A stretch of 64,000 bases of DNA. Source: Octopus vulgaris (lineage: Eukaryota). The position numbers and the translations under genes were made by a program. This document shows, in pieces, positions 4,637 to 28,296 of this stretch. Within the stretch, counting starts at the first letter, position 1; the number at the start of each line of letters is the position of its first letter. A model generated the notes under the pieces. The model saw nothing but the letters and a program-made list of their open reading frames with translations. It ran no database searches and was not told where the DNA came from. The DNA is taken from assembly GCA_951406725.2 (NCBI GenBank), contig OX597823.1:11470001-11534000 (forward strand), read 5' to 3'.

Positions 4637-5407
4637 GTACTTTAAGCCATAGTAAGAACAGTTATTGCAGTGAATGTTGGTGGTTTAGAAGCTGCCTGAA
4701 CATAATGAAGAAAACATTGTCACTGAGAAATGCCAGTTGTTTTGGTCACTCACAAAATGCTAGGCAACATCTGAGAATACTAGTTTCTCAGATACTTCTA
4801 TCATGTCTTCTCACTATTTCTTTTACCAAAGTCTGTTTGGTACATTTAAGGTTCCTTTCTGTGTAAACCCACTGAAATTTCTTTTTATCATAATCTCCTT
4901 CCCTTCGTTGCCTTGATAAAGGAAAATATTTTATTTCATTCTTCTTATTTATTTACTTTTTTCTTCTTAACTGTCTCCCATAGCAACTCCCCTCTCTTCC
5001 AATATTTTCCTGATAATTACTAACTGAGAAGTTGAAGTTAAATGTTTATTGAATTGATATTTAACTTTATCTAAACATTAGTTTAGTTAATCCCCAATCG
5101 CAGTTCTTCAGTTCTCAGTGACCAATTTTATACATTCACTGCACAAATATGATAGAAATGTTGGTACACCCATCTTCCCTTTTTTTTCATTTTGCTATCA
5201 CTCGTAACCTTGTTATCGAATCTTTCTTTGTCACCTTGTTACTCCAAAGAGAAAGCATGGGGTATTTTACTATTCATTTGTGTATAGAAAAAGTACCTCT
5301 CTCAAAGCAGAAAGCCACTACTCTTTAAATCAATCAGTTGAAACAAATCATATATTCATATATAACATCACGTTACTAACACTTTGTCATATGTATTACA
5401 TATTCAG

Positions 5408-5449
5408 GTGCTAACTTAACCAACCTCCGGTATATCAGCTATTTAACAC
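5408..5449 (+). CDS. 42-nt phase 1-1 mini-exon upstream of Ig1 (xANLTNLRYISYLT-H)
   Basis: Perfect branch point TACTAAC 5374-5380, acceptor TATTCAG, donor C|GTAAGT, TGCATG at 5457-5462. Open only in phase 1; splicing to Ig1 gives H-P-P. Confidence 0.65.
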
Positions 5450-5866
5450 GTAAGTATGCATGGTCAGCATTAGAGAAGCAACTAAAATAAAATATTAAGC
5501 TATAGATGATAAAGGCCCTATTCAGTTATCCCATTAGTTACTCAGGCACATCATTTTAGTTAATATATTAATAATATTCCATTATTTTGCTTTTGCAAAA
5601 ATTTAGGTTATATATAAACAATGAAAAATGCAATTAACTGAAGTTTCTTCAAACGTTTATTATTGTTAAGTGTAATAAACTTTTCCTTTTCGGGTGGTAG
5701 GGTTGAGTTTGATAGTTTCCAGCTGATGATACTGTGTGTTACCGCAAGAATTCAAAATGGACAAGATGTGATTCCAAGTAATTTAAAGTTTTGATATCTG
5801 ATGCTTTTTTCGAGCTAAAATAATCTGGCTTACTTTAGATAGTTGAACTACAGACCCTTATGTGCA

Positions 5867-6646: not shown

Positions 6647-6940
6647 ATCCACCAAAAATTACACTTGCTCCAAAAAACCAAAGAGTGGCCGAAGAAAAAA
6701 TTGTAAGCTTTTTTTGTAAAGCTTCAGGAAATCCTGGCCCATCATTTTCATGGAGAAAAGGAAGTCGCCGCATTAGTATAAATAGAAACCGTTTGGTTAT
6801 AAAGGAAATGCCACATGGGTCTGTATTGAGAATTGAGCCAGTTAAAAAAAAGGATGCCGGTAGTTATTATTGCATTGCTGACAATGGTATAGGAGCAAAA
6901 GCTAAGGCAAATGCAACTTTGGAAGTCTTTTCAAAAATAG
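6647..6940 (+). CDS. Lar: Ig1 (I-set) exon of a LAR-family receptor protein tyrosine phosphatase (PTPRF/PTPRD/PTPRS-like)
   Basis: 294-nt exon between TTTCTTGCAG and GTGAGT, phase 1-1. PPKI..PKNQ.V....VSFFCKASGNP.P.FSWRKG...SVLRIEPV...D...Y.CIADNGIG...A.ATL closely parallels my recollection of Drosophila Lar and vertebrate LAR Ig1. Confidence 0.88.
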
Positions 6941-7956
6941 GTGAGTGATATATTTTCTAAATATGCAAATTTTCTTCTTTGGAAAGATTTTTTTTAAGAA
7001 CTTTCTTTGGATGTAAGTTTATTTGTGTAGTATAGAAAAAGTTTGTCAGAAACTTTTAGATTTTTACAGAAATAAAGAAAATGTAATAATAATAGTAATA
7101 ATAATTGATGTCTTCTTGGCAGGACAGATTTAAATACATTTGTGTTGAAAGAATTTGGAAAACTAATCAGCTAGGATATACATGATGAATATTTTATGTG
7201 AAACAAATGATTTTTCTTAGAATCTTTGACAATTCAATATTGTCTGTGATGGAAGTTATGTGAACAAAAGTAGATTTTCTGAAAAAAAAAAATGCTATAT
7301 TGTATTGACAGTTTATTTAAGATATAATAAAACAGAGTGTATCTATCAAGATATGAAAAAATTCATCAAAAAGTAACTATTATTGCAAGTTTAGAAGTAA
7401 TTAAGTTCTGTGAAGTCTATCACTTTTGAGAGTCATATGTAAATATTAAATTTTAAGATTCATTCTTTTCAGGAATATTTGATGGCCTTTTTTTTTTACA
7501 GAATAATTATTTTTGTTTTGTTATTATGAATTTTGTTTGAATTGTTGAAAATAATAATAAAAAAAAAGAATTGTGTTCTATAATGTCAACCAATGTTGCC
7601 CTCATAAGTGAATGTTTTTATGTTGCTGACCATTCTTGATGCAGTGCCATTTTTCAATTGTTCACATTGTGAAACATTGTAAATTATGTATATATTTATT
7701 TATTTTTAATTTTCATTCTTTGTTACTATCATTAATATAGATTTTGAATCTTTACATACTTTTCAAAGACATTTTTCTGATATTCAGAAATCATATAGCA
7801 AAAGAGTTAAGTAATTGCTGAAATTTTTTGGTATCACAAAGAATAGAAGATAGCTTACAGTAGCATCATATTACCTTGGTCTGTGGTATCTTTGACACAA
7901 ACCAAATTAACTGGGGTATTGTTAATCTATGAATTTTTCTCACTCTTCTTTTTCAG

Positions 7957-7980
7957 AATATAGATATATAGACATTTTTA
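7957..7980 (+). CDS. Candidate 24-nt phase 1-1 micro-exon (EYRYIDIF) after Ig1
   Basis: Long pyrimidine tract TTTTTCTCACTCTTCTTTTTCAG, donor A|GTGAGT; phases 0 and 2 contain TAG, phase 1 is open. Confidence 0.55.
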
Positions 7981-8029
7981 GTGAGTAAAAGAACGTAGAA
8001 TTTGTCATTCATAAACATTATTGTTTCAT

Positions 8030-8480
8030 CATAGGCCAGCCCTGATTGAACAAACCTAGGATCAAAGGTGTTCCAGGTGTGACCATTGAGTCATTTCTTT
8101 TTTCAGACTATCTAAGATTACTTTACCCAGTGTATCTTCCCCTTTTTCTTTTTTTATATTTATAGACAATAGGGTTTCATGGCAGGTTGTTATTTCTAGC
8201 CAACCATGTAACTGTGTAGAGGTTATCTTACTGGCTTATAACTAAGAAACTTACTGAAGTTTAACCCCCGATTGGCCCTGGTTGAACAGGGCAGTAATCA
8301 AGGTTTTTCCAGCTATGTTTATTCAGTATTTTCTGTTTTCCGACATAGCGCAATACACAGTTAAGTTTAATATATTTTGGACTATATCATCCAATATGTA
8401 ATTTTTTTAAAAGATAGAATGTAATCTGAAAGAGATTGGGCTGTTATCTCTTGTAGATCAAGTAATCATGTAGATATTGC
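8030..8480 (+). repeat. Two tandem diverged copies of old interspersed repeat family G
   Basis: CAGCCCTGATTGAAC...GATCAAAGG..TTCCAG..GTGACC...GGCTG(C/T)TATTTCTAGC motif set recurs about a dozen times in the window. Confidence 0.6.
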
Positions 8481-9399
8481 TTTTGAGCTTTTTTTATAGT
8501 TGTTGATATTAATAGTCCATATGATTAATACAAAATTTCATCTCAGTTAACCATGTTCTATGTGCTTCAGTGAAGTAGTGGTAAGCTAATAAATCAAGCA
8601 TTTAACCTTTTACCACTTCACTGAAGTGTAATACATATACATATATTTGTCTGTCTGTCTGTCTGTTGTCTGTCTGTTCAATCTCAAGTGGTCATTTTAT
8701 TTTGACTTCAAACTTGCTGCCTGTAAGTCCTTATCTTAAAAAGCTACTTCTGGCTTCTTTAAGTGGAATATAATTTAATCAATACTCTGCAGTGGGGAAG
8801 AGGGAAGCAAATTATCCAATTCCATGCAAATTCAATCAGTTTTCTATTAATGTTTTTGACATTTTTGTTTTTGTCTCCTTCACTGTCAAATCAGTTTAGA
8901 GGACATTTGGAGAATATTAAGTTAATTCATTAAAAAATTTAGAACTTTTTTTTAACACTGCCTAAATTTTACAAATAAATAATTTCATCGTAAAACTTTA
9001 GCTTATATACTGTTGAGCATAGCTTTGTTGGTGGGACTATCACAAAGTTCTCATGATAGGGCTTATGAAATTTAAATTATTGCCAGGCAGAAAAAAAAAT
9101 TTTATTTTCCTCTTACCCCCATCTCCTGCAAGTTGCATTTAAGGCAGAGTATTCATTGTTTGAACTGATATGTTTTTATAAATATCTAGGGATATTTACA
9201 TGTAAAAAGCACCCAGTCCACTCTGTAAAGTGGTTGGTAATAGGAAGTGCATCTAGCTGCAAAAGCTATGCCAAAGTAGACAATGGAGCTCGGTGCAGTC
9301 CTCTGACTCGCCAACTCCTGTCAAACCATCCATCTACCATTCCTTAGGATATCAAAAGGTAGAACCAACCTGCCCCCACCAAAAAAATAAAAAAAATCC

Positions 9400-10200
9400 C
9401 GAACTCACTGCTCTTCTCAAATATTTGAGGCCTTCTTGAGGCCAACCTGGATCCCATACATCACCCCTTACTCACATGCAAATCTAGACATACATAGATT
9501 TTGTTCTATCTGCTACTCCTCTTATCTGGATTTCAGAAATTGATTTTCAGTTTCTCCAACTCAAAGTCTCCATTTATCATTCTTTAAAATACATCTCTCT
9601 ATACAGCTTTCTGTACTTCTCAAAACACCAGCAAATACCACACATCACCCCTTTCTGAAGTCATTGTTCTTGGTGATGAGGAATTACACAACTTCTCAGA
9701 GGTGTCACACTCATCCCATACTGATGCTACTAGTGCATAAGCCAAATCTTTTGTTGTTCCCAATTACTTACTTCAATTTGTTTTATTCCCAACTTACACT
9801 CCAGACTGACAGACAGATCACCTTGAATACTTCTTATACATCTCGAAATTTAATTATTATGAAACCACTTTTGCTCTCAACTTTGCATCCAACTCCACAC
9901 TACATACTCTTGGCCAGTCACTTATAAATCTATTTCCTTCCCACTCATTTACTGTCACAGCCAACAACATCTGCTCTTAAGTAGATGATATAACCCTTTG
10001 TCCTGCCTAACCTTCCTCATACATCATTCACAGACAACCTAGACACCACATGCAAAGTTTGCACTGATTCCATGGAGACCTTGAATGGATCCTCCAGTTG
10101 AGCTTAAAACAACATAAAAAAAAGTTGATTCTCAATATTGCACCACAAAACCTTAAACATGAGTTGCAAGCAGATAAATGCTGCTTGGTCGCTCAAAATG
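9400..10200 (+). mobile_element. Highly decayed LINE RT remnant
   Basis: Near 9957-10000 reads TANNICS*VDDITL (decayed YADD) followed by DLEWILQ; boundaries are uncertain. Confidence 0.35.
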
Positions 10201-10289
10201 TAACACTACACACATCCAACATACACCACACACACACACACACACATATATAAAACCTTATAAATTTATATGACTGCATGTTGTGAGAC

Positions 10290-10545
10290 ATGCTGTGGTG
10301 GGTTTTGCACGAACATGGGATTAATGAGCAACTTCAGTTGCCATGAAGACCCGATACGAATGCCAAAATATTTATTTTTGGGTAAATGGGGCTAAATTGA
10401 AGCCTTTGAACCTGTGTGTTGAACTTTGGCAGGTATGCATACTGCCACCTCTTTTTATAATTTTCACAAATTGACTTAACATGCACAGCCATCGTGGAAA
10501 TGGTATCATAGTCAAAGGGTGTAGGATTGGTCAGCTGATATATAC
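10290..10545 (+). mobile_element. Decayed RTE-like RT fragment
   Basis: Reads LWWVLHEHGI...VELWQVCILPPLFIIF, resembling the GLRQGCVLSPLLF motif region. Confidence 0.4.
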
Positions 10546-10823
10546 TCTAACAACATGCAGCTACATGTCTTATTAGAAGGTTCTGTTCCCACAAGCACTG
10601 AATAGACTCCTTGCCAAGTGCTGCAAGGCAGAGATAATTAGTGATATGAAGACTGGTTAGTCCTATCAAGAAAGTCTTTTCAGTGATGGGATGCAGGATG
10701 CTGAATAGAATGCTAGAAATGCTTGTGCAAGCACAGTAATGCACAAGCTCTAGTATTCAATCTTCAGAAGAGTTGGTAAGTTCGTAAGCAATCCAAACTC
10801 ACTATCTTCATTTCTGTTTTTAT

Positions 10824-11008
10824 ACGTAAAAAGCACCCACTACACTCACGGAGTGGTTGGCATTAGGAAGGGCATCCAGCCGTAGAAACACTGCCAGATA
10901 AGACTGGAGCCTGGTGCAGCCTTCTGGCTTCCCAGATCCCCGGTCGAACCGTCCAACCCATCCTAGCATGGAGAATGGATGTTAAACGTTGATGATGATG
11001 ATGATGAT
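10824..11008 (+). mobile_element. Family C copy
   Basis: Same body and (GAT)n tail as 2272-2447. Confidence 0.75.
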
Positions 11009-11039
11009 ACCTCTCTTCATCCATGGTTATGCATATCAC

Positions 11040-12055
11040 TACATATCTTTTACACATCTCTAGGGAGTAGAGCTTCAGTTCTTTTAGCCTTTCTCAGTAA
11101 CTCATTTGTTTCACCAAGTCAGTCTTCTTTGTGCAGTGGCTCTGGATTGCTTCAAGTTCCTTAACCCTTTCGTTACCAACCCGGCTGAAACCAGCTCTGG
11201 CTCTGAGTACAAATGTCTTATTTTCATGAGTTTTGCACTAAAATCTTCCACCAAACCTTAGTCACACTTTATGTTCCTAACACTAGCTTAATGATAACTA
11301 AGTTAATTTACTAAATTCTTTGTTATATTTAAAGTAATTGAAAGAAACACAGAGCATCTCAACAGAAATACATTAGCAAAAGGGTTAACTAGTTTGATGC
11401 CCTAGAGTGATCACAGTTGGGAGCAGTAATCCAGACAACTCAGAAGAAAAGTTTTCCATAGGAGTAGCATGGTATTGTTTGTTCCTGGTTCTGAATGATT
11501 TCAGAATCCATCCAGCAACAACTTCCCTGCACAATGTTGCCATTTTGGTAATATGCCCATAGAATTTTACATCATTACTCCCGTGAGTTCCCAAGTGATA
11601 CACCACTCTAACTCAGGAATTGCACTACTCTGTATTGCGATTATAGTGTTGAAGTGCTTGAACCTTCTCAGGATTGAATCTTCATGTTGCTTTCATCAGC
11701 CCATTTGTATATTGCATTCAGGTAATTTTGCCATATTAGTATGTCATCAGTGTCCTTGAATGCTTCTGCTTCATTTGTATCATAAGCATAGCTTATGTAT
11801 CATAAGTATAGGTTTGTATCATCAGCATAGCTGGTGAGAGTGCTTGACTGTGTAGCTGATGGAAGGACTCTGAGAAGCACCGCAGCAGTAACAGTCTCAG
11901 TACAGTTCCACGAGGGACTCCGCTGTGAATTGATGTCTCTCCACAGAGAGAAAACCAATTGTCCCACAGCTGCCTTTTAAAAAGTCATGCAGCCTCTCTT
12001 TTATTTTTCCAGCAATGCTAAGGTCATGCAGTTTGTGACATTACCATCCCATGAT
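11040..12055 (-). mobile_element. CR1/L2-group LINE RT remnant interrupted by a MITE
   Basis: Minus strand SGVPRGTVL (~11901-11924), SYADDT (~11815-11832) and GWILKSFRTRNK; contains stops and frameshifts. Confidence 0.75.
11161..11388. mobile_element. TTAA-flanked MITE family E1 (piggyBac-like)
   Basis: TTAA-CCCTTT...AAAGGG-TTAA termini, 228 bp; similar copies at 25287 and 35672. Confidence 0.85.
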
Positions 12056-12198
12056 CAACACACACGCACACACATATGTGTGTGTATGTATATATATGTG
12101 TGTGTGTATATGTATATATATCTATATCTGTCTATCTATCTATCTATATATATATATCTATATCTATCTATCTATATATACACACACACACACGAGTG

Positions 12199-12358
12199 AC
12201 TTCTTTCAATTTCAGTTTACCAAATCCACTCACTGGGTTTTGGTAAGCCTGAGGCTATATACTAGAAGACACTACCCCAAGGTGCCATACAGTAGGACTA
12301 AACCCAAAACCATATGGTTGCGAAGGAAGCTTATTACCACACAGTCACACCTGTGCCT
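12199..12358 (-). mobile_element. Diverged SINE family A head
   Basis: Reverse complement of the tRNA-like head and the CTTGGGxAGTGTCTT segment. Confidence 0.65.
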
Positions 12359-12385
12359 CTATATGTTTACATATATGCATGTAAA

Positions 12386-12438
<53 letters not shown>

Positions 12439-12589
12439 GTATGTATAATTTGGTTAAATGTTCAACACTCAGATACCAGTAAATGTAAGTAGAATACATA
12501 TGCCAAGTAAATCCTCATGCATGACAGGTAAATCCAAGAATTGTTTCAAAGTATTAATATATATATATATATATGTGTGTGTGTGTATG

Positions 12590-12639
<50 letters not shown>

Positions 12640-12763
12640 GATAGATATATGTAGATAGATATAGATATATATGAATATAAATATGTGTTTATATATATAT
12701 ATATGTAGATAGATATAGATATATATGAATATAAATATGTGTTTATATATATATATATATATA

Positions 12764-12914
12764 CACACTCTCGGAGTGGTTGGCATTAGGAAGGGCATCC
12801 AGCTGTAGAAACTCTGCCAGATCAGATTGGAGTCTTGGTTCGCCAGACCTCAGTCAAATCGTCTAACCCATGCTAGCATGGAAAGCAGACGTTAAATGAT
12901 GATCATGATGATGA
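12764..12914 (+). mobile_element. Family C copy
   Basis: GGAGTGGTTGGCATTAGGAAGGGCATCCAG...CATGCTAGCATGGAAAG...(GAT)n. Confidence 0.75.
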
Positions 12915-12981
12915 TATATATGGATATGAATATAAATATGTATAGGAATATATTCATATGTATATATATTTCATTATATAT

Positions 12982-13116
12982 GTAGGTCCCGGGTTGATTC
13001 GGGGTTAACCACAGTAAATAAGGTACTCAGTACATAGCAGAGTAAAATTAATTTATTATATAGAAGGAGCTTCTACAGGACTAGAACTGTTTCATTCAAG
13101 AGAAATCTTCAGGAAG
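12982..13116 (-). mobile_element. Penelope-like pseudo-LTR fragment carrying a hammerhead motif, 14-bp TSD
   Basis: Flanked by ATTTCATTATATAT (12968-12981; 13117-13130); the minus strand carries the HHR core and a downstream AATAAA. Confidence 0.6.
13070..13116 (-). ncRNA. Minimal type I hammerhead ribozyme motif
   Basis: Minus strand: CUUC-CUGAAGA-U UUC ucuu GAA U-GAAA-CAG uucuaguc CUG-UA-GAAG. All core nucleotides are present, with stems I/II/III of 4/3/3 bp. Confidence 0.6.
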
Positions 13117-13553
13117 ATTTCATTATATATTTCATTATATATTTCATTATATATATATATGTATATTGCATCTTCCCACAACACACACATATGCACAAAC
13201 AATATTACACACACCAACTGATAAGAGAGATACATACACACACTTGTTCATATACATACATATGCATAAACACACAATATTAATACATTAACACATAATA
13301 CACACACACACACACACAACAGTGTCATACACCAACCTGATGCACAAACACGCATGCACACACTACTCTCCCTAAGCAGACACGTACACATTAGCTGCTA
13401 CACACATGCATTTGCACACACACACACACACACTTTACACAACCTCACGCATTCCCACGCCTATACACATCTCCACACATGCATACACATAAATACACAA
13501 GCACAGACATACATCACTCAACACAGCATATCTGTTTGCTTATTCATATACAT

Positions 13554-13931
13554 ACCAGTGCCGGTGACAAGTATGCGAATCATCCGATAGTGGCCGTTGC
13601 CAGCGCCGCTCCGACAGGCCTCCGTGCCGGTGACACGAAAAAAGCACCATCTGTTCGTGGCCATTGCCAGCCTCGCCTGGCCCCGTGCCAGTGGCATGTA
13701 AAAAGCACCATCCGATCGTGGCCGTTGCCAGCCTCGCCTGGACCCCGTGCGGGTGGCACGTAAAAAGCACCCACTACACTCACGGAGTGGTTGGCGTTAG
13801 GAAGGGCATCCAGCCGTAGAAACACTGCCAGATCAGACTGGGCCTGATGAAGCCTTCTGGCTTCACAGACCCCAGTTGAACCATCCAACCCATGCTAGCA
13901 TGGAAAGTGGACGCTAAACGATGATGATGAT
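13554..13931 (+). mobile_element. Longer family C copy with ~60-bp tandem units
   Basis: About three units of CCGTGCCGGTGGCACGTAAAAAGCACCATCCGATCGTGGCCGTTGCCAGCCTCGCCTGG precede the common 3' body and (GAT)n tail. Confidence 0.8.
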
Positions 13932-14366
13932 ACACACACATACTCCCATATGCACACACACTCACACAGGCTCATATAGTCTTGTGCTTGCCCACATATA
14001 CATTCACATGCATACATGCACTTGCATGCACATGGTTTAGCCAGGTCATTTTTATGTCCCCTTCCATTCAGCCTCCTCCATCTGGTCATTTCAGTATATG
14101 AAACCATTAATCCAGCTACGTTTGTTTTACTCTCTCTCCATTCTCTCTCCTCATTCCTCTCTGTCAAAAAGTGTAGGCTTCAAATGTCAAAGGGTTTTTC
14201 CATTTTTCCTGAGCGTCAAACTAATACACTGACCTGCCCTTTGTTTCGTACTGAGCCATTGCTTTATCTGGTATTGTTGGGATGAGAATTTCCAATTCCT
14301 TTTTGAAAACATCCACATTTTGTAGATTTCTTAATGTTTTTGGCAGGGTATTGAAATTTGCATGCC

Positions 14367-14582
14367 TTTAGTTAGTTAGTTTGTTAGTTAGTTAATTTTT
14401 TGGCTCAAAAAGCAAAAAGCAAGGACATGTAGGGGGACAGGGAGTTATGTACAGGGTGGTGTTCATGTAAAGAGTGCAGGCCACTTGAGGTCAAGGGAGA
14501 CTTTGAACAAAGCGGTTGTCGGCATCTTCACCATCTCGTCTGGCAGCTTGTTCCACAGATCCGCAACCCGGACGGAGAAGCC
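14367..14582 (-). mobile_element. CR1-like LINE 3' end with (TAAC)n tail
   Basis: Minus strand FSVRVADLWNKLPDEMVKMPTTALFKVSLDLKWPALFT*, then a short 3'UTR and TAAC repeats. Confidence 0.8.
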
Positions 14583-15051
14583 TAAACTATTGGTGTACCT
14601 GGTCCTGACTTCAGATGGAGTGGATAGTACCTTAACTTACAGCTCCAAAAAATACTGTCACATGAGATGGAGTGGATAGTACCTTTAGGACAATTTAATG
14701 TCTAGTTTCAGCATTTGAATAACACTCAGTGTTAAAATTAGGTACTAGTCCTTTCAAAATTTTTCATATGTAGATTATTATATATCTGTCATGTCTTTGC
14801 TTCAGGGAATAAAGTTGTAGATTTTTTTTTGCATCTCCCTGTTGTTCATTTACTGCACTGTTACAATATTTTTAGTGTTGTGATGTTGGACCACTTCGAA
14901 TTCCACTGTTAGTTTCGTGCTATATGGTGACCACAGCTGAGTGCAATGGTCTTTCACAGGGTCAACATATTTGTCTGTCTGTCTGTATGCATGGGAAAGA
15001 GAGAGAGAGAGAGAGAATGATAATATAAATTTATATATATATATATATGAA

Positions 15052-15332
15052 GGCCCAGTGGTTAAGGCAGCGGACTCGCGGTTGGAGGATCACGGTTTCG
15101 ATTCCCAGACCGGGCGCTGTGTGTGTTTATTGAGCGAAAACACCTAAAAGCTCCACGAGGTTCCAGCAGGGGGTGGTGATCCCTGCTGTACTCTTTCACC
15201 ACTCTTTCTTCTGTTGGCCTGCTCGCTTAGCCAGCGGGGTGGCGTCGTTCGAAGGCTAAAACAATGCAAACGCATTGTGACCAGCGATGTGTAGCAACAT
15301 CTGATGGTCTGGTCGGTCAAGTGATCAAGTGA
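15052..15332 (+). mobile_element. SINE family B head with an alternative 3' tail
   Basis: Nearly identical to family B up to CTCTTTCACCAC (~15202), then an unrelated tail ending GGTCAAGTGATCAAGTGA. Confidence 0.8.
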
Positions 15333-16539
15333 TATATATATATATATGTGTGTGTGTATGTGTGTTTGTATATGTGTAAAAAAAGGTTATTTAATTTCAC
15401 ATGGGAATAAATATAGAAAAAAGAAGTTGAAAAGGCACTGGGAGTGTTTTAGATGGTCTATTTTTGAAGGCTTAACTGGTTTAATTTTCTGAATTTCAAA
15501 AGTGAAGTGAGATAGAAAGATGTGGGGCTATGCGTTGGCTCTCTTGCTCTGACAGGAGTGCTAAAACTCTTGATTTTATAGAGTGAACATTGTCTAAATT
15601 AGTATCTGTTTAGGATACAATTTTATTGGCAGAGGATGATCACATGATGAGGCTTAGAAATTTTTGTATATTCTTGTCCATGTGTTAATCTCATGTGACA
15701 GTATTTTTTTGGAGCTGTAAGTTAAGGCTGACACAATTGGGCGAACGTGTTTAGAGATAGTTCCAAACAATCAAGGCTCTCTAAATTTAATATCAAGTGT
15801 GGTAGAGGATGATTGTGTGATTAGGCTTGGAAAGTTCCCTGCTATGTCTGCGAGTTAATGTCATGTGACAATCTTTTTTTGCTTGAACTCTAAGAATGAC
15901 ACTGTTGAGTGATTGTGTCTAGTGACAGTTCCAAACAAGGCCCTCTAAATTTGATCTGTGAAGTGTTAGAGTGGACAGGAGTTGTTTGTATATAGTCCTG
16001 TATATATGCACTCACTTATATACATCCCTCAACCTTCACCAAGTTGAGCACCATTGGTCATCCATCTATCTCTACATGACACCTTTCATTCTCCCTGAAT
16101 TTTCAAGTTGTTGCCAACCGTACTGTCTTCTCTTGCTCCCCCATACACTTGTAAACCTACACCTACATGACTTCTTCCTCTGTCCCACACTTCTAATCAC
16201 CTCACACCTTTAGGAACAACCTGGATCATTCACACTCTCACTCATAAAGGTGAGTAACCATGTAGCTCCTTTCCAAGAACCTCACCTGTTCCACCTCTTT
16301 TTCTTTCACACTTATACCCTTCATCTCATATAAAACTGCACCCACCCTCTGGTATTGTAATGCAGTGCACCATACAGGGAAACTTAACCAGACCTGATGG
16401 GACAAAATAGTATCCAATACACACTGAGGTGGCTGCCAAAGGGCATCCAGGTATTGAGAACGTGTGACATGAAGACACTGGAGTATGATAGTCATTGGAC
16501 CCGTTGGGCCCACACACACACATATATATATATGTGTGT

Positions 16540-16815
16540 GTGTTTATGTATGTATGTATGTATGAATGTGTTTATATATATGTATGTATGAATGTGTTTA
16601 TATATATGTATGTATGAATGTGTTTATATATATGTATGTATGAATGTGTTTATATATATGTATGTATGAATTTGTTTATATATATATGTATGTATGAATG
16701 TGTTTATATATATGTATGTATGAATGTGTTTATATATATGTATGTATGAATGTGTTTATATATATGTATGTATGAATGTGTTTATATATATGTATGTATG
16801 TGTTTATATGTGTAT
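16540..16815. repeat. 26-bp minisatellite (TATGTATGTATGAATGTGTTTATATA)n, about 9-10 copies
   Basis: GAAT recurs at 16564, 16590, 16616, 16642 and onward. Confidence 0.9.
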
Positions 16816-16878
16816 GCATATATATATATATATTCGTATATGTATATATGTAGGTGTATGTATGTGCATATACTTACA

Positions 16879-16914
<36 letters not shown>

Positions 16915-17189
16915 TAATATCTATATTTGACTTATTTTTATGCTCATACAACCCAGATTTTAGTATATGCATTGTCTAAGCAATACTTATACAACCCAGA
17001 TTGACTGCCTTCTCACTAGAAAGCTAAAAAGACAGGTGTTTGGAAACGTAAAGTATTTCTCTAGTGAAGGATTTACTATTCAATATGTTAGTGGTTAACG
17101 ACCTTATGTGTAGAGCTAGGGTGACTTAGAGAGAAATGCCTATTCAGCTTTTGGAAGCTTAAGAGAACCCCTAATTGAAATATCTGACA

Positions 17190-17660
17190 TAAAGGAGGCC
17201 GAGAGAGTGATGTTGAAAATAGAAGATACCTAAAAGTTTTTACTAGACAGCCTACTGAGGACACCGTTCTAAGTCTGTAGCTGATGCATTGTTCTATTCA
17301 GAAAAGGGTTGGTGGAACATTGAAGAAGACAGATCCATAAAAGCAAAGAGACAAGCTTGGAATGTAGGGTGGTTAGAAGAGAATGTAGGTGACAGGTATA
17401 TTTAGCAAGAAGAGGGACCAAAAGGAAGAGGTTTGAATACGTTTTTCAGTGGAGGGGGTGGATTTGAGGCATGGGTTCAGGATGGTGTATAAAATAAAAT
17501 TGAAACTTTTTGAGGGAGAAATATGTACAGATAGATAATGGTTCATTTGAGCTTAATGATTCTGAAAGGGAGACATGGAAATGATTCTTTGAAAGGGTAC
17601 TAAACATGGAGAATGCAAGGGAAAAAGAGAGCCTTCCAAATGTGAACCCATAAAGTGACC
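17190..17660 (+). mobile_element. Decayed RTE LINE fragment (endonuclease-RT linker)
   Basis: Reads WWNIEEDRSIKAKRQAW and ETWK*FFERVLNMENAREKESLPNV. Confidence 0.55.
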
Positions 17661-17848
17661 AGCTAGTACTAGCAGAAAGACTGCCCTCTGGGCGGTTTCC
17701 TGCTAGTTACTTGATAATATTTTCACATCAATATTTTCGGTTGCATATTTTTTTGGAAGCCCCATGTTGAATTGCAAAATTCTAATGTGATATTTGTGTA
17801 ATAACAAAATCAAACCTGGAGTGTGTGTGTGTTTATATTACAGAGACA

Positions 17849-17879
<31 letters not shown>

Positions 17880-18005
17880 TGGTGAGAGAAAATTGCAAAC
17901 AAAGAATGAAATGAAAAAAATCGTATGAATAAAAGCATGTTAAAAACTATCATGTACTGAATATTTAAATCTGTGAACTTTAAATATTCAATAGTAAAGA
18001 AATAG

Positions 18006-18189
18006 GGATTTCGTCTGCCGCTACGTTCTTAGTTCAAATTCCTCCGAGGTCGACTTTGCCTTTCATCCTTTCGGGGTCGATTAAATAAGTACCAGTTACG
18101 CACTAGGGTCGATATAATCGACTTAATCCGTTTGTGTCTCCTTGTTTGTCCTCTCTGTGTTTAGCCCCTTGTGGGTAGTAAAGAAATAG
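18006..18189 (+). mobile_element. tRNA-derived SINE family D, 5'-truncated
   Basis: B-box-like AGTTCAAATTCC then GTCGACTTTGCCTTTCATCCTTTCGGGGTCGATTAAATAAGTACCAG; homologous to the reverse complement of 37345-37569. Confidence 0.8.
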
Positions 18190-18261
18190 ATATATTTTAT
18201 ATTAATTTGGCTCTTTTTGTCTATAAAGGGACTTATGTTTCCTATACCCACAGATAATTGT

Positions 18262-18490
18262 TTAACCCTTTAGCATTTAAACCGGCCATATCCAGCCAAA
18301 AGTATTCTGCCTGTTCTATGTTCAAACTGGCCATATCTGGTCTCTCACACCAACTCTACAATATCGTTTTAAAAATCAACAGCTACCTCATCAAATTTTC
18401 ATAGTTACAAGATAATGCATGATTAGTTCAAAACAAAGTGAATGAAAAAGCATTAACTTTGGCAGAATAATGCGAACACCAAAGGGTTAA
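18262..18490. mobile_element. TTAA MITE family E2 (piggyBac-like)
   Basis: TTAACCCTTT...AAAGGGTTAA, 229 bp, with an interior different from E1; a decayed copy lies at 35065-35286. Confidence 0.8.
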
Positions 18491-20189
18491 AGCAAGTATA
18501 TCTTTTCTTTAAAAAATTTAAGATTATTTGCTTAACAACTTTATCATTGTAAACATTTTGTGATCTGCAGATGAAGCTTGTGAGGACTTGTTTATAGCCT
18601 GTCAGTAGTTCTTATACTTTCAGTAGAAATTGTATTTGTATAAATTGCTGTAGAAGGGTCACATGACTACTCACATTTTAGAAGAGAGGGTTGAGAGTTT
18701 GGTGGGGGTAAGGTGGGAAAGATAAAAATAACTTTTGTGAGGCATCTCTGTGGACCCTCAAAATATGAAGTGAGTAGAAGTGGATGGTGGAAGAATAATG
18801 AGGACTGTAGGTGGTTGGAGTGCACAGACAAATGAGAGGTGGGGAATAGCTGAAGCAGTGAATGTAATAAATAAAGAACAAGTGTTACATGAATTAGTAG
18901 GGGAGGTAGAGAAGGGTTGCAGTCAGGGGGGTAGGGCTGAGGAGTGGATGTAGTGAATGGGAGGGGTAAAGGATTTGGTGATCAATGATAATGATACAAT
19001 GGGCAAGGAAAGGTGAGAAAGGGAGAGCGGTGGTGAATAGTTGGATAGATTGCAAGAGCGGGAACAGTGAGAGATGCATGGTGGAAGAGAAGGTGACAGG
19101 ATTTGGGTGCTCAGCAAGGGGCTGCAACGGTGAATTAAGTATGGGGGGGATGGTAGTGATAAAAATTTGTGGTATCAAAGAAAAACAGCAGTTAGAGAGT
19201 TAGAAAGTTGTGGAGGTTGGGGGTGTTTAAGAAATTGGGCAAAGGGGCCAGTTGTTTGTGTGTGTCGTCATTATCATAATCTAACATGTTTTCCATGCTG
19301 GCATGGGTTGGGCAGTTTGACCAAGGCTTGTAAGGCCAAGAGCTGCAACAAATTCCATTGTCTGTTTTGGCATGGTTTCTTAGTGCCACTGGGTGCATTT
19401 TATGTCGCACCATAACCAGTGCTTTTTATATGACACCGTCATAGTACCTTGCAAGACAAAAAACTCCTCAACTAAGTGTTGGGGAATAATATTGAGGGGT
19501 TGTGGCTTTGTGTCAGTTGAGAGATTTAAGGTATAAAAGGATAGATTTAGGTGTCTTGTTGTAGAGTAGATACATAGACACCCAAGTGGAAAAATAGAAT
19601 GAGTTAGAGAGTAAGATAAAATAAAGAGAGCAATAGTGAGAGAGATGATAGCAAATATGTGTCAGGACATGCTCTCAAGGGACATTAGGGGTGGTAAGAG
19701 TAGGTGAGATGATATAGAGGCTAGGACTGGCTGAGTGAGCAAGATGAGGTGAGTGTAGCAGATGATGGAGAGAAATATAAAAGAAGCTTGGTGGCTGGGG
19801 TTTGTAGTACATATATGAGGGCATTGAGAGTGATTGCAGGTAAGCGAGGTGTTGACGATGAAGAGCTGCACTGGTAGGAGTGTGAAGGCAGAGAAAGGAG
19901 GTGGTTGGTGGAGACAGTTAATAGGGTAGAAAGGTAACAGAGAAAGCCAAGGGATGTAGTATGTGCTTATTCTGCTTTCAAGTAACAGAGGAAGTGATGA
20001 GTGTTAAGGGATGAAATATGGGTGGGGGAAGAGGGTTGATGTAGCAGAAAGGATGGAAGTAAGCATTACCCGGATGGTTTTAGGATATCAGTTTTGCTGT
20101 GGTGGATGGGTCGTTTTGAGTATAGCAAGGTGCCCAGATATCTTGGTTTTTGTCATCTCTTTTGTGAGGCACAGCATCTTGCGATCAGA

Positions 20190-21640
20190 CTTCGGTACTT
20201 CATCCCATGTCTTCCTGAGTCTCCCTCTTCCGCAAATTCCAACCACTTTAAGAGATGGGCACTTCTTTATGGATCCATATGCATTACATGCATTACTAAA
20301 CTTGCACAGTCATTTCTCTTGCACACTGTGTCTAATTCCTCTTATGCCTAACTTCTCTCTCAATGCACTAGTGCTCTGTTGTAGATATACACTTACATTG
20401 CACATCAAGCAGAGCATACCAGCTTCATTCCTCTCTAAACTTTGCATGTCCTCTGTATTCTGGGCCCGGGTCTCACTACCATATAGCATTGCTGTTTGTA
20501 AACATCATCATCATCATCATCATCGTTTAACGTTCGTTTTCCGCGCTAGCACGGGTTGGAATAAACATAGATCATACTATCTTCCTTTCACTTGGAGAAA
20601 CCTTTGGTTGCCAACAGAGATAAACACTCTGAACTTCCTCCATTCTCGTCTTATTCTAGCAATTACAGTTTCAGTACAGCCTCTTCCACTATTAATTAGG
20701 TGTGTGTGTGTGTATACATACACATGCATGCACTCACACACCATTCCAGAACTTACTCTTGCTTAGTTGGACAGGTTTTCTCAAGAACCATATATTGCTA
20801 GTCATCCCACATCCTTGTCATCTCCTCCATGATGTTCAAGATCTTGACATCAGCCTTTACCACTTCACCCAGTTTCCTCCTGGAGCTTTCTTTTCCTGCG
20901 AACTCCATCCACATTAAGTGACTGGGACTTCTTTATTCTGCTGTGCTCATAATATGATTTTCTCCAGTACATCTGTCACATATGAAGCTTATTTTTTCTG
21001 CCAGTCTACCTACAATTCCACTAAACCTTTTGTGTGTTCATAGCTTAAATTGTGTACAGAATACGGTGCTTATATCTAGTCCTTTCTGAATATCAACAAA
21101 GGTAATTTCCCTGAGGATACCAAGGTCTTGTTTTCTTTCCTACTTACTAAAATTAAAGTCTTTACTAAGTTAGCATTGAGGCCTCTTGATTCAAGGTTTA
21201 TCATCTATGCTAAATTATACTCTAATTTCTCTATAGATTCAGCTATGAGAACTAGATCATCAGCAAATAGGAGTGGCCATGGACATCCAGTCTTAAGTTC
21301 TTCCACAATGGCCCGTAGGACTATGTTGTGTAGAAGACTGAGGACTGAACCTTCATGCTAAACCTTTGACTCTTACTTTACTTAGGGCATTTTAAAACAT
21401 ATTTGTACAGATCTCACAAGCCATTCATCTACACTTTGTTTCTTCTGTGGCCTGGAATTACTGAATAAGGTACACTGTTAAATGCCTCTATATCAATGAA
21501 AGCCAGGAATAGTGGTTTACTATTATCAAAATATTTCTCCTGCAATTGCCTCACTATGGAGATTGCATGTGTGGTGTCTCTTCTGGGCATGAAGCTAAAC
21601 TCCTAGTCATGAATCAATTTTACTATGAACTGATCCCTTC
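20190..21640 (-). mobile_element. Fragmented RTE-clade LINE
   Basis: Minus strand FMPRRDTTHAISIVRQLQEKY...FLAFID, HEGSVLS, CPWPLLFADDLVLIAES (FADD ~21256-21267) and MLYGSET...LREKLGIRGIR. A short family C insertion at 20503-20560 is flanked by TAAACAT. Confidence 0.8.
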
Positions 21641-21983
21641 TTTCATACTTAACATCTCATCTCTTAACATAAATCTGCCTCTCTTGCAGTATATAGTCTC
21701 TCAAGTTTCATGGCAACCTCACTAGTGCTGACAGCATGGAGAACAAGCACCCAGTACACACTGCAAAGTTTTTGGCATTAGGAAGAGCATCCAGCCATAG
21801 ATATCATGTAAAATAGACAGTAGGGCAGAATGCAATCCTTGTACCCATAGGATTTTGTCAAGCCATCCCTGTATGTCAGCATGGTGCAGGAGCATTAAAT
21901 GATGATCATGAGAACTTTCTTACATACTTAGGTTCTAGTCATTGAGAATTTTCTCCATATATATAAGGAAAGAATATATGAAA

Positions 21984-22388
21984 TACTCTTACTCTTTACT
22001 CTTTTACTTGTTTCAGTCATTTGACTGCGGCCATGCTGGAGCACCGCCTTTAGTCGAGCAAATCGACCCCGGGACTTATTCTTTGTAAGCCCAGTACTTA
22101 TTCTATCGGTCTCTTTTGCCAAACCGCTAAGTGATGGGGACGTAAACACACCAGCATCAGTTGTCAAGCAATGCTAGGGAGACAAACCCAGACACACAAA
22201 CACACACATATATATACATATATACGACAGGCTTCTTTCAGTTTCCGTCTACCAAATCCACTCGCAAGGCATTGGTCAGCCTAGGGCTATAGCAGAAGAC
22301 ACTTGCCCAAGATGCCACGCAGTGGGACTGAACCCGGAACCATGTGGTTGGTTAGCAAGCTACTTACCACACAGCCACTCCTGCGCCT
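21984..22388 (-). mobile_element. tRNA-derived SINE family A, full length
   Basis: Head AGGCGCAGGAGTGGCTGTGTGG (A box), GGTTCAGTCC (B box), CORE-like CTTGGGCAAGTGTCTT, central TA/TG microsatellite, (TAAAGAG)-type tail. Confidence 0.9.
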
Positions 22389-22897
22389 ATACATTCGTAT
22401 AAAATATATATCTTATTTCATAAACAAAAATTATATATTTTATAGGAATACATTCTCTTGGATATTTGTTTCATCTCATCTATAAAAAGAACTTGCACTT
22501 TTTGCTTTATATTCACAGAGTACCAGTTGTAGATTAATTGAAATGATACTCTGGAACCAATTCTTGATTTTACTTCACTCAGTATCTAAAAAAGTCATTT
22601 TGTTTTTGACTACTTTACATTTTCAAGAATATAGAGAAATGATATTTTATAAAGCTTGTATTGAATTAATTAGTATCGCTCTTTCTCTCTCTCTTTTTAA
22701 TTATAAATATTTCACATCTGAGTTTTCTGTGGTGCTTCAAAGTGCCTTGTTTCTGTCATCTACATGGGTTATTTCCAAGAACCCAAATACTTTCTGATCT
22801 GAAGTTTGAGCAACATTTCTGTATTTGCCATACCGTCAATTGACATTTCTAAAATGTAATGAAGTTTCAAGATAATTATGAATTAGATTTGATACTC

Positions 22898-23089
22898 TTA
22901 TCCCTTTTATTACCCCATTTCTGTTGAAATACACCACCTAAGTTTCAATTATTTTTGAATATAATGAATGAAATAAACTTAGTAACCGCAAAATAACTTT
23001 GTAATTATTAAGCTGGTGTTTGAAACATAAATTAGCATAAAATTTGGGAAGGAAGCTGTCACAGGTGGCTTGATATCAAAAAAGGTTAA
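22898..23089. mobile_element. Decayed E1-like MITE in opposite orientation
   Basis: Interior resembles the reverse complement of E1 (ATTAAGCTGGTGTTTGAAACATAAATT); ends AAAGGTTAA. Confidence 0.5.
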
Positions 23090-24112
23090 AAAGCCTACAC
23101 AAGGAAACTAGAGAAATATTGTATAGGATAGTAAAAAGAGATAATGAGAGTTGAGGGATGGGATTGCATTGATTTTATTTCCCAGAAACCTGCTGAGAAA
23201 AAAAAAAACACCTACTCATATACAGCTGAATGTCAAATTGTTAATGAGATAAAAACTTTTTGTGGACAATAGAAAAGTTGTTAGAGATGAGATTTCTTTA
23301 TTAAATGACAATGTATGAAGGTGATTAGTGTAGGGTTAGGTTTTGTGAATAGGAGGAAAATTTTTCAAATGTCCTAATGATTTTCATATGATATTCAGCA
23401 AAGGAGGTTGAAAATCATATGACATTCAAAATAATTAAATTCAGAAATTTTCACATTTAAAAAAAGTCTTTACAGTCATTTGAATACAAGAAGACACTGT
23501 TCAGTATATCCAAAGATTAACAATATAGAAAATATTAATTTACATATAATATAGATACTTCTTAGGAAGTACAAGTGTTATGGAAACTTAACTAAATGTT
23601 TGAAAGAGTCTAGACTTCGCTAAAGGCACCAAAAGGTGCCTTTAGCAAATCAAGTCTCAGATAAATTCTTCCACCCTTGATGGCTCTTTCAGTTACCATG
23701 CCTTCCTTCTCTAGATTGTCTTGTGTCCTTCCTTCTTTTTTTTAAATGGACTGATGTGTTTTGAGGGTTAGCCTGACTTATTTTTAGCAGGTTTAGTGAC
23801 ATATAGTGACTTCCTCATTGTTTCTTCTGAGGAAACAATTTTTTTGCTAGATTGTCATAACTTGGAAGCTGCTCTCATCTTTTTTCTCTAAAATCCAGGT
23901 TTTATGATTCACAGCAATATTCTTAGTGGAAGGGATCAAAACACATGTATTTTGTGTATTTATAAATTAAAAACTGCATCAGTTTCTATGCTATCACCAT
24001 GATCATTAGAAGGAGAATTAGAGATTGAAAATTCATACCTGGTGTGGTTTCACAGCACAAAAAAATACCTCAAGAATATGAATATTGTCAAATTTGTCAC
24101 GTCTGAAAATAT

Positions 24113-24490
24113 ACTATGCTTATTCTGAGCGCCTTGTTTCCCTGGGCATGGATTCACTGAAGCTCCGGCATCTGGCGACGGACTTGGTAAACACCCACAA
24201 GGTTATCAACCACCTCACCAACAACAACACTGAACACCTTTTTGATCTCCATGTGTCTAACACACGTGGACATGCCTACAAAGTCAGAAAACAGCACAGC
24301 TCCCATGACTTTCGGAAACATTTTTTCACGCTCAGGGTTGCTGAAGCGTGGAATAAACTGCCTGCATCAGTTGTTGACTGCCATGACACTGCATCCTTTA
24401 AGGCCCTCATGCTTCCCGAAATCCGTCGAAACTACACCTGATTATATATACACTTTAGATGAGTTGTAGTGCACCTGAGCACTGTACACA

Positions 24491-24533
<43 letters not shown>
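24113..24533 (+). mobile_element. CR1-like LINE 3' end with intact ORF2 C-terminus and (TTA)n tail
   Basis: YSERLVSLGMDSL...NTRGH...FF.LRV..AWNKLP...FK to stop at 24441, then a short 3'UTR and (ATT)n 24491-24533. Confidence 0.88.
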
Positions 24534-24536
<3 letters not shown>

Positions 24537-25286
24537 TGAATCTGTAATTTACGCTTGCTTTCCTTTGCTATACCAGAATAACATATATTTATAATCGAAA
24601 TTACGCTAGAGTGCTCACAGATAATCATTTCTCAATATTCTGTATGGAACATATAAAGGTGCTGTGCTGTTTATCAGAGTTTAATATTAAATGATACTGT
24701 ATATATATATCTAAGTAGAAATATATACGAATAAATTTTGTATGTCAAGTGAAAATAATTTGAAAATAATTCTTAAAGTGTAGGTGGAAATGTAATTATA
24801 GAAATAGGTTTCTTGGTCTTAAGTTTAGACAATTTTGTAAGTCTTAACCAGAAATGTCTAAGATAAATTGCAGAACACGCCTCTAACTTCACCTCTATAA
24901 ATAATAATTTTGAACTATTTGTGCTCAAAATTATCTTTGCTGGCATGAGAAAGATTGGTATAATAGTATTGTATACTACTGTGTTATTTCACTGATACTG
25001 TTGTTTTCCTGTGAGTATCATCATCTTGTGATCTGTCCTTAATACTTTCTACCTTAGCATTCCTGGCCTTCCTGTAACGTGGATAATTTCAACTGTCAGC
25101 ACTGTACATTCATTTACCCAACACCTGTCATTCGTTCACCTTCTGCATGCATCAGCCAATGCATTTAATATCCATCCATCCATCCTCCAGACTAACTTGT
25201 GCTCCACCCTTTATGCAAAGTGATATTGCACATCTAATGGATTGTATTTGATTCATTCCAACCTAGCCTCAAATGAGTTTCTGTGT

Positions 25287-25515
25287 TTAACCCTTTTGTT
25301 ACCAACCCGGCTGAAACCGGCTCTGGCTCTTTAGTACAAATGTCTGGTTTTCAGAAGTTCTGAATTAAAACCTTCCACCAAACCTTAGTCTCAATTTATG
25401 TCTCTAACTCTAGCTTAATGATAACGATGTTATTTTACTTAATTCTTTGTTATATTTAAAATAATTGGAAGAAACACTGAGCATCTCAAAATAAATTCAG
25501 TAACGAAGGGGTTAA
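25287..25515. mobile_element. TTAA MITE family E1
   Basis: TTAACCCTTTTGTTAC...GTAACGAAGGGGTTAA. Confidence 0.85.
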
Positions 25516-26055
25516 AGCCCATGTTTTTTTTTTAATTATATAGCATTAAATATCTTACACACCATTGATACTGTTTCCCTTTATGCATAGTGAGAGAAAT
25601 AAACCCCTAACAGAAACTTGTGTTGTGTCCTTGATATGTTTTGTAGGAAATAGTGAGAACCTCAGTATTGTTTACTCAATACAAGCATTATGTACACACG
25701 TGGATATCTGGCATATTGACGGGATTTCAAGTGTGTTAGATATATAAGCAGGAATTGTTATTTAACCCCTAAGTCAGCCCTTATTGAAGACATTCTTGCT
25801 GTGCCTGTCCTGTCTTTGTTTGAATTAGTTCCTTCTTTTTTAAGTTTTGAAGTCAAATTTGACTATTATTTCTAGCAAGTCATACACTTACATAGAGGCT
25901 TTTTCATTGGTTCATATAAGCAAGAATGGTAAGCAATGGAGATACCATATATTTTCTGAATTATTACCTTTGCTGAATGTAAGTGTATGTAATTTTGTTT
26001 TGAAGGAAATTTCAGGTAGAATTTTTTCTTTAGTTATATTTTATCTTTACATATA

Positions 26056-26445
26056 AGGCACAGGAGTGGCTGTGTGGTAAATAGCTTGTTTACCAACCAC
26101 ATAGTTCCGGGTTCAATCCCACTGCGTGGCACCTTGGGCAAGTGTCTTCTACTATAGCCTCGGGCCGACCAAAGCCTCGTGAGTGGATTTGGTAGGCGGA
26201 AACTGAAAGAAGCCTGTCGTATATATGTATATATATATGTATGTGTGTGTGTTTGTGTGTCTGTGTTTGTCCCCCTAGCATTGCTTGACAACCAATGCTG
26301 GTGTGTTTATGTCCCTGTCACTTAGTGGTTCGTCAAAAAGAGACCGATAGAATAAGTCCCGGGGTCGAGTTGCTCGATTAAAGGCGGTGCTCCAGCATGG
26401 CCGCAGTCAAATGACTGAAACAAGTAAAAGAGAAAGAGAAAAGAG
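26056..26445 (+). mobile_element. SINE family A, full length
   Basis: Matches family A; lacks the ~22-nt segment between the two internal GAATAAGT direct repeats. Confidence 0.9.
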
Positions 26446-26665
26446 ATAATTGGGTGATTGTAATTCATCAGCTAATTTATAGCAGCCGACTGACTGACCC
26501 CATTGATGGTCAGAATCGCGATGCTGCTGTTAATTGTCTTCTTAATTGAAGTTTTATTTACTCTCAAATTCTTTCAATCAAATTAAATATTGTTTACATA
26601 TACTGAGTTAATAGGATAATAGCTCTGTTAAGTTGTACAATATTTTGATCACTTCATGAAGGAAA

Positions 26666-27055
26666 TCTTTATATATAAAAGAGAGGTTGTGTGCTGTCTG
26701 TCTCCTACGATTTAGATTCCTAACTACTCCCACATTTTGCGGTGCAGTTTAACCAAAACCGGGTATCTTATAGCCGTGATTCATATCGAGCCCTTCTGGG
26801 TATTAGCGGGCGTCTATGATTTAAAAAAAAATTTACCATCATTTTTTTCCATTTTAATGCATTTTTTTCGCTATTATATAAGGGAAGTAACTCTCTAAAA
26901 ATGTCTACGATGAGTCAACGATTTTTAAAAGAATTTACCATCATTTTTTTCCATTTTTAATGCATTTTTTTGCTATATTTTGGCTATAACTCTCTAAAAA
27001 TGCTTATATAGTTATCTCCCTTACAAACCCGAGCAACGCCGGGCGATACTGCTAG
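26666..27055 (+). mobile_element. Non-autonomous Helitron (family F)
   Basis: A|TC 5' end, GTCT repeats near the 5' end, subterminal hairpin CCCG-AGCAACGC-CGGG, 3' CTAG|T, no TSD. Confidence 0.85.
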
Positions 27056-27477
27056 TAGTTTATATAATTATACTTTAAACTATGAATACAACAGTTGAAT
27101 GTTTCTGATGTGCTGAATATTTTTAAAATTCAGAAGGTGTATAACAATTGTTTGTTGGATGACTTCCCTACTTTGTGTCGTTTAACAGCTAGATCAGCTC
27201 TAACTTAGCAGACATGATCAGAGGTGTTCAAATTATGAGCATCTCATCTTTGTTTCAGGTATAATATATCTTGGACTTCAGTATCTTGCATACATAGCTC
27301 TCTTCTCCCCTATTTAAGCTGGAATGTAGTATAATTTGAGGGAAATTAGCTGCTATTTTTACAAGTCAAGCCACCACATCATCGATTCAACCTTTAAGTA
27401 CAGATTTCAAATGGTATTTACTGGTATCTGGGTAATCTAAAACAAAGGGATATACTTTGACTTTGAATTGTAATTAA

Positions 27478-27685
27478 TACTCTTTACTCTCTTTTACTTG
27501 TTTCAGTCATTTGACTGTGGCCATGCTGGAGCACCGCCTTTAGTCGAGCAAATCCACCCCAGGACTTATTCTTTGTAAGCCTAGTACTTACTCTATCGGT
27601 CTCTTTTGCCGAACCGCTAAGTTACAGGGACGCAAGCACACCAGCATCGGTTGTCAAGCGATGTTGCGGGGACAAACACAGACAC

Positions 27686-27739
<54 letters not shown>

Positions 27740-27896
27740 GTACGAAGGGCTTCTGTCAGTTTCCATCTACCAAATCCACTCACAAGACTTTGGTCAGCTC
27801 GAGGCTATAGTAGAAGACACTTGCCTAAGGTGCCACACAGTGGGACTGAACTTGAAACCATGTGGTTGGTAAGCAAGCTACTTACCACACAACCAC
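27478..27896 (-). mobile_element. SINE family A
   Basis: Reverse-complement match to family A. Confidence 0.88.
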
Positions 27897-28296
27897 AAAC
27901 TAAAACTAAAAGCTCATGTATTTTACTTTGAAGTGGTATATATCGTTGATAGATTACAAAAAGAGTTTTATGTGCCTTCAGTAGGGTTTCAAATTATGGT
28001 TTTTGCCAGAGAAATCTCTTGAAATTTTATGTGAGTATTTAAGTTTCGGTGTGACACGAGTACTAAAGAAGTTAATGTTGTATCTCTTCAGTCTGTAGCT
28101 GGTTGAGTGACCATGTAAAGACACTTGTTGATTTGAGATAATTTTTGTAGTGATAAATTAGTATGGATCTTAGTAAAGCACCTGAATCACTGCAACATTT
28201 CTAGATGTGTCTACACCATAAAGCTGCTTCCTCTTACTGTTATGGAATTATGAATTCCTTACTAATTCAATATGCTTTTCTTTTTTTTAATCAGTT

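Follow-up and report, generated by a model that had tools for sequence, protein, structure and literature searches.

The window analysed, a 64-kb stretch of the Octopus vulgaris genome, carries exons of a gene that encodes a receptor protein tyrosine phosphatase (RPTP) of LAR type (type IIa). One of them encodes an I-set immunoglobulin (Ig) domain, Ig1, which agrees at every residue (100% identity) with LAR-RPTP proteins of Octopus in RefSeq. A predicted model of Ig1-2 containing the mini-exon found its best structural matches in the Ig1-2 of Dlar and vertebrate PTPRS/F/D. The mini-exon is located between the Ig1 exon and a signal-peptide exon, the latter known from contig loose ends and proteins (Table 1). 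The initial annotation had placed the mini-exon next to a ligand-binding Ig1, and the adjoining exon is indeed the LAR-RPTP Ig1. This domain bears a glycosaminoglycan-binding patch in vertebrate LAR-RPTPs (passages of PMC6078854), and the octopus Ig1 carries a sequon of its own, N-A-T.

Table 1 Features of the mini-exon region and of the LAR gene in the window.
Feature	Position	Strand	Remark
Possible STAR (QKI/How) half-site TAAC	5363..5366	+	TAAY at -45; weak, frequent in AT-rich DNA
Predicted branch point TACTAAC (also STAR/SF1-type core motif)	5374..5380	+	Motif match
Interrupted pyrimidine tract and CAG acceptor	5381..5407	+	64% pyrimidine at -25..-4
Cassette mini-exon, 42 nt, phase-1	5408..5449	+	Encodes (G)ANLTNLRYISYLT(H)
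5' splice site GTAAGTAT	5450..5457	+	RNA joint 5449->6647, GT..AG
Candidate Rbfox enhancer TGCATG, then GT	5457..5462	+	Intron +8..+13; motif; placement tested in SMN2
Ig1 exon of LAR-type receptor tyrosine phosphatase, phase 1-1	6647..6940	+	Protein and RNA matches
Intron after Ig1	6941..63180		At least 56 kb
Reverse-transcriptase-tail-like ORF fragment, short	24082..24441	+	Presumably a decayed LINE piece
Second mini-exon, 30 nt, phase-1	63181..63210	+	EINHWKFMYE

The mini-exon preserves the reading frame (phase 1-1) and falls within the micro-exon limit of ≤51 nt, although it exceeds the stricter limit (<30 nt) given in passages of PMC8711739. The sequence elements reported in the initial annotation were all recovered: TACTAAC 27 nt before the exon, a GTAAGT donor that is used in RNA, TGCATG starting 8 nt into the intron, and an N-L-T sequon in the peptide when read in the phase-1 frame. 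We scanned both strands of the window for TACTAAC followed by YAG, 15-75 nt and GTAAGT, and this arrangement was unique to the mini-exon; a relaxed version gave 11 plus-strand and 13 minus-strand matches. The chance of TACTAAC in a random 35-nt stretch is 0.15%, and that of TGCATG in a random 24-nt stretch is 1.0%. The plus strand of the window contains 34 copies of TGCATG, and a single copy lies within 150 nt either side of the mini-exon.

Spliced forms in RNA runs and gene models

Eight of 24 sequencing runs were examined, and splicing was evaluated in five of them, which come without library or tissue record; we took these five to be RNA, a guess based on the joined exons that they contain. 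The counts leave out X19, which has no cover over the mini-exon. Included and skipped forms were both present in two of the five runs (X1 and X5), where loose ends connected the upstream exon with position 5408, indicating inclusion, and with position 6647, indicating skipping, and where the inclusion joint from the mini-exon into Ig1 was found. The two junction contigs of X1 had comparable depths (85 and 134), contig depth being a poor measure. The remaining three runs (X9, X10, and X12) contained single contigs that led from the upstream exon directly into Ig1, and X9 has the organism label of X1 and X5. As contigs lose rare forms, finding skipping only means that inclusion was low or absent in these runs.

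RefSeq isoforms with and without the mini-exon peptide are present in two Octopus species, O. sinensis and O. bimaculoides. The peptide is included in O. sinensis P0016, P0019, P0022, P0024, and P0029 and, with Ile replacing Leu, in O. bimaculoides P0002, P0020, P0021, and P0026. P0003, P0027, and O. vulgaris P0025 are without it. The 42-nt segment is a real cassette exon, the inclusion of which varies between samples. The initial annotation had named as contrary to its reading an exon that is never included, or one that is constitutive and lacks TGCATG conservation; the mini-exon is neither never included nor constitutive, since two runs hold both forms and three the skipped form.

Conservation of the insert before Ig1

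Cross-species conservation had been proposed in the initial annotation as a check, and the mini-exon peptide matched optional inserts that recur directly before the Ig1 start in LAR proteins of molluscs, a brachiopod, and insects. We compared 20 hand-picked pairs of proteins with and without the insert from 18 species in which both forms are visible (two octopuses, a chiton, four gastropods, five bivalves, Lingula, Rhodnius, Glossina, and three Drosophila); 20 further species were scored on inclusion forms alone. In all 20 pairs, the upstream sequence was identical and the insert measured 12-23 aa, except in Ruditapes, where two inserts in tandem amount to 44 aa. The junction residue was often altered between the members of a pair, as expected of a phase-1 exon. 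Outside Octopus, we deduced the exon boundaries from models of the proteins rather than from DNA.

The insert is 14 aa long in Octopus, Drosophila, Glossina, and Rhodnius. We compared the 13 inner residues without gaps and evaluated the matches by 50,000 shuffles, which set a floor of p 2e-5. The octopus peptide ANLTNLRYISYLT and the Drosophila yakuba peptide ANYSDIPYIQYLT were of equal length and identical at 7 of 13 residues (shuffle p 2e-5), and the same identity and p value were obtained with each of Glossina, a stick insect, and a chiton. Shuffle p values were 6e-5 for Rhodnius and for a scorpion, 1.4e-4 for a spider, and 9e-4 for Lingula. The Haliotis insert matched weakly (p 0.01), and the similarity of the Pecten insert to the octopus peptide was no greater than expected by chance (p 0.09). 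The insect Lar insert, seen by comparing D. yakuba XP_039229294.1 with XP_039229301.1, shares with the octopus insert its position, the length of 14 aa, N-x-S/T, and Y-I-x-Y-L-T-H. We infer from this sequence likeness that the two are orthologues; the insect insert is known from automatic gene models, and no paper on it was found.

The insert was absent from the single Capitella protein and the Lineus proteins seen, and the squid/cuttlefish-like proteins that we examined (P0004, P0005, P0032-34, P0037, and P0038) comprised no included form. It occurred in 0 of 112 teleost PTPRF proteins (112 anchored of 119 examined); the vertebrate search gave teleost PTPRF-type proteins only, PTPRD and PTPRS being outside the sample. 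A profile search of 1.84 billion proteins with the exon and the Ig1 start returned matches dominated by multi-Ig giants. The survey leaves out invertebrate deuterostomes, nematodes, and cnidarians.

The likeness in place, length, and sequence points to one ancestral exon, as judged from protein models. The matching optional insert in flies, snails, clams, and a brachiopod suggests that it is an ancient switch on the receptor tip. We consider it very probable that the mini-exon is real, regulated, and ancient. This deep conservation, which was absent from the initial annotation, is the point of greater interest.

The bivalves showed further variation before Ig1. Three differing versions of the insert were present among Mytilus models (P0080, P0081, and P0085), and two inserts were present in tandem in Ruditapes (P0100 and P0101), which suggests duplicated or mutually exclusive exons.

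Candidate control by Rbfox

The initial annotation regarded UGCAUG downstream of an exon as the enhancer position of Rbfox, and this is supported for positions +8 to +13 by a human SMN2 minigene (passages of PMC8789036). In that study, SMN2 intron 7 was mutated at +11 to +15 behind UGC. Introduction of AUGGU at these positions creates UGCAUG at +8 to +13 followed by GU and gave a dPSI of +14.5, unlike 14 of the 16 UGGY pentamers, which were repressive. Overexpression of RBFOX1 promoted exon 7 in the UGCAUG mutants, and the effect of UGCAUG was weaker when G or A followed the hexamer. These data speak against the objection that +8 is too near the donor for help by Rbfox. TGCATG is also enriched downstream of alternative human micro-exons (passages of PMC4317164), and a neuronal MYH9 exon is driven by RbFox binding at a weak donor (PMC13158602).

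The octopus mini-exon has UGCAUG in the placement of the SMN2 mutant, likewise followed by GU. It also resembles the RBFOX-enhanced micro-exons described in passages of PMC4317164 in being shorter than 51 nt and frame-preserving, with UGCAUG just past the donor. The micro-exon and SMN2 data are human, whereas the octopus site is known from its sequence. By this analogy, Rbfox control of the mini-exon is plausible, and we lean slightly towards the view that Rbfox enhances its inclusion.

We compared the region with two related organisms. No change of TGCATG was among the differences listed for organism E (~95% identical; 14 of the 54 differences are outside those listed) or in the likewise incomplete list for organism C, also a close relative; as any 6-mer has a 74% probability of staying intact at the distance of organism E, this is a weak test of motif conservation. 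The differences listed for organism E include C5380T, which keeps TACTAAY, and C5425A. The segment 5284-5506, chosen after the fact, contained 2 listed differences against 8.2 expected (p 0.007), and four other intron segments gave p values of 0.11-0.70; we place no weight on this comparison.

In the mechanism that we propose, the short exon and the interrupted pyrimidine tract would make skipping the default. The strong branch point, together with Rbfox bound to UGCAUG just past the donor, would rescue inclusion in a subset of cell types, probably neuronal ones.

Other regulators and tissues

Regulation might instead reside at the 3' end of the upstream intron, where TACTAAC would serve as both the branch point and a QKI/How site that represses the exon in glia or muscle, with TGCATG being incidental. 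By the motif definitions for STAR proteins (QKI/How), TAAC is a half-site of the STAR element. Such a half-site is found 7 nt upstream of TACTAAC, CTAAC occurs within the exon, and TACTAAY is kept in organism E. In addition, the second mini-exon of the gene has ACTAAT at +31 and no TGCATG within 150 nt. However, half-sites are frequent in AT-rich introns, and the conservation of TACTAAY does not discriminate because it is also the plain branch consensus. The placement of TGCATG, moreover, equals that of the enhancer tested in SMN2 (passages of PMC8789036). We consider repression by STAR proteins unlikely as the main control.

The exon could also be under Rbfox control and yet be used outside neurons, in muscle or some other non-neural tissue. 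Micro-exons are common to brain, heart, and muscle, and Rbfox proteins act in muscle too (passages of PMC4317164); Lar has a function in fly muscle (PMC9140312). Furthermore, the Lar rows viewed in eMIC and Elav/Fne tables do not include the fly exon. In the 26 of 62 'Lar' places viewed in PMC8797185, the Lar exons of Table S2 were of 24, 291, and 9 nt and the fly 42-nt exon was absent, and the eight Lar rows seen in the supplement of PMC8055025 were other exons. On the other hand, conservation of tissue-specific exons is highest in neural tissue and deeply conserved neural exons are short, according to passages of bioRxiv 10.64898/2026.09.05.749416. Non-neural inclusion appears improbable to us, and neural enrichment of the mini-exon rather likely.

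Control by eMIC/Srrm234 was ruled out as the primary reading because UGC is absent near the 3' splice site; no TGC was found in the 150 nt upstream of the mini-exon. Targets of eMIC have UGC near the acceptor (passages of PMC8797185). The mini-exon resembles the eMIC/Srrm234 (SRRM3/4) neural microexons described there in that its CUAAY branch point is strong and its AG-free zone long (68 nt), but it differs from them in having neither UGC near the 3' splice site nor a UCUC-rich tract.

Properties of the insert peptide

The claim of the initial annotation that the exon adds a glycosylation site was correct in that the sequon is present, and 32 of 40 insert rows have it. The reading is incomplete, as Ig1 has its own N-A-T and the sequon is lost in the other eight rows (three of Mytilus, Magallana, Limulus P0089, Centruroides, and two spiders). 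All eight of these rows keep the aromatic C-terminal half. Conservation within the insert is highest in this second half, [YF]-[IV]-x-[YF]-[LV]-T, which directly precedes the first Ig1 strand. Of the seven residues identical between octopus and fly, five fall within Y-I-x-Y-L-T, C-terminal to the sequon. Because the aromatic half outlasts the loss of the sequon, the insert appears to be more than a glycan site.

With signal-peptide cleavage after TWA, a site judged by eye, Asn would be the 4th residue of the mature protein. In the AlphaFold model of the insert-containing Ig1-2, pLDDT was below 50 for residues 1-9 and averaged 82 for residues 11-20, and no secondary structure or strand was predicted before residue 16. 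The low pLDDT and the missing early strand do not support a fixed insert fold, and the model is compatible with the insert packing on Ig1 or not doing so. The solved Dlar Ig1-2 chains contain 7 (3pxj) and 5 (2yd1) residues before the Ig1 start; thus, the whole insert cannot be in either structure.

In the version put forward by the initial annotation, the exon would add an N-glycan or spacer near Ig1 and act on folding, traffic, or steric access, without peptide-specific contact. The high share of rows with the sequon, the disordered N-terminal half of the insert in the model, and the variable length of mollusc inserts (12-23 aa) are consistent with this, but the aromatic half that stays when the sequon is lost and the octopus-fly identities beyond the sequon argue against it, and we regard it as doubtful. 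In the mechanism that we prefer, the insert would be the N-terminus of the mature receptor after signal-peptide cleavage. Its first half would form a flexible tip, probably glycosylated, and its second half would likely create or cover a protein contact, in the manner of the vertebrate meA and meB at other sites of the ectodomain. We predict the added peptide to be a new receptor tip that changes what Ig1 binds; we rate a change in partner binding as an even chance.

A pseudo-exon without function, included by noise, would fit the skipping in three of the five RNA runs but is scarcely tenable, as it is largely refuted by the conservation of the peptide between octopus and insects, and the mini-exon keeps the frame and is included in X1 at a depth comparable to skipping.

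Other features of the gene

The second mini-exon is located between Ig1 and Ig2 and is present or absent among Octopus RefSeq isoforms; its skipped junction was found in all five RNA-like runs. Optional Ig1-Ig2 inserts like EINHWKFMYE were seen in Pecten (GINPAWKKIYK), Mytilus (GNPNWKKMYK), abalone, limpet, snails (GGNPWVVKYE), oyster, and Ruditapes, and none was found in the arthropod rows seen. The long intron after Ig1 is rich in simple and dispersed octopus repeats, and it contains no match to any further part of the LAR protein.

LAR isoforms without the Ig1 N-terminus were present among octopus and bivalve models (P0017, P0018, P0044, P0049, P0201, and P0206). P0017, P0018, P0044, and P0049 start with a different signal-like peptide that leads into FN3-like sequence, which points to a conserved internal promoter.

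Relation to known mini-exons and significance

Vertebrate LAR-RPTPs (PTPRF, PTPRD, and PTPRS) contain the mini-exons meA-D, which are short and in-frame and encode up to ~16 aa: meA in Ig2, meB between Ig2 and Ig3, meC in FN5, and meD near D1 (passages of PMC8711739). According to the same passages, meA and meB set the ligand choice of the Ig domains. The octopus mini-exon is likewise a short, in-frame, optional exon of this receptor family, but it differs from meA-D in its position before Ig1 and its unrelated sequence. It is not one of meA-D and, by analogy, may work like them.

The 20-species survey of bioRxiv 10.64898/2026.09.05.749416, which includes O. bimaculoides, infers in the passages seen only two bilaterian-ancestral neural exons versus 62 gained at the insect ancestor, and optional exons common to molluscs and insects appear rare. 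Lar is unnamed in those passages; the supplements may list the exon. Our literature search, with subscription papers outside its scope, found no description of the mini-exon, and four words of its peptide gave 0 papers. The mini-exon is already included in automatic gene models and is apparently undescribed, and the type of mechanism is familiar.

Lar is a classic fly receptor for axon guidance and synapses. As a whole, an ancient optional Lar exon that acts as an Rbfox-promoted splicing switch and alters Ig1 binding is the best explanation, and we judge its chances to be a little better than even. An optional peptide of such age at the Ig1 tip, missing from the solved fly structures, could reveal isoform-specific ligands. 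More tentatively, and with the odds against it, the insert may be a fifth, protostome-wide LAR mini-exon that predates the mollusc-arthropod split and forms an isoform code at the N-terminal tip, with the aromatic motif choosing a ligand or cis-partner and with an expansion in bivalves. If this is true, the selected ligand or cis-partner would be invisible to the exon-less Lar used in structural work, and the mini-exon would be to invertebrates what the meA/meB synaptic code is to vertebrates.
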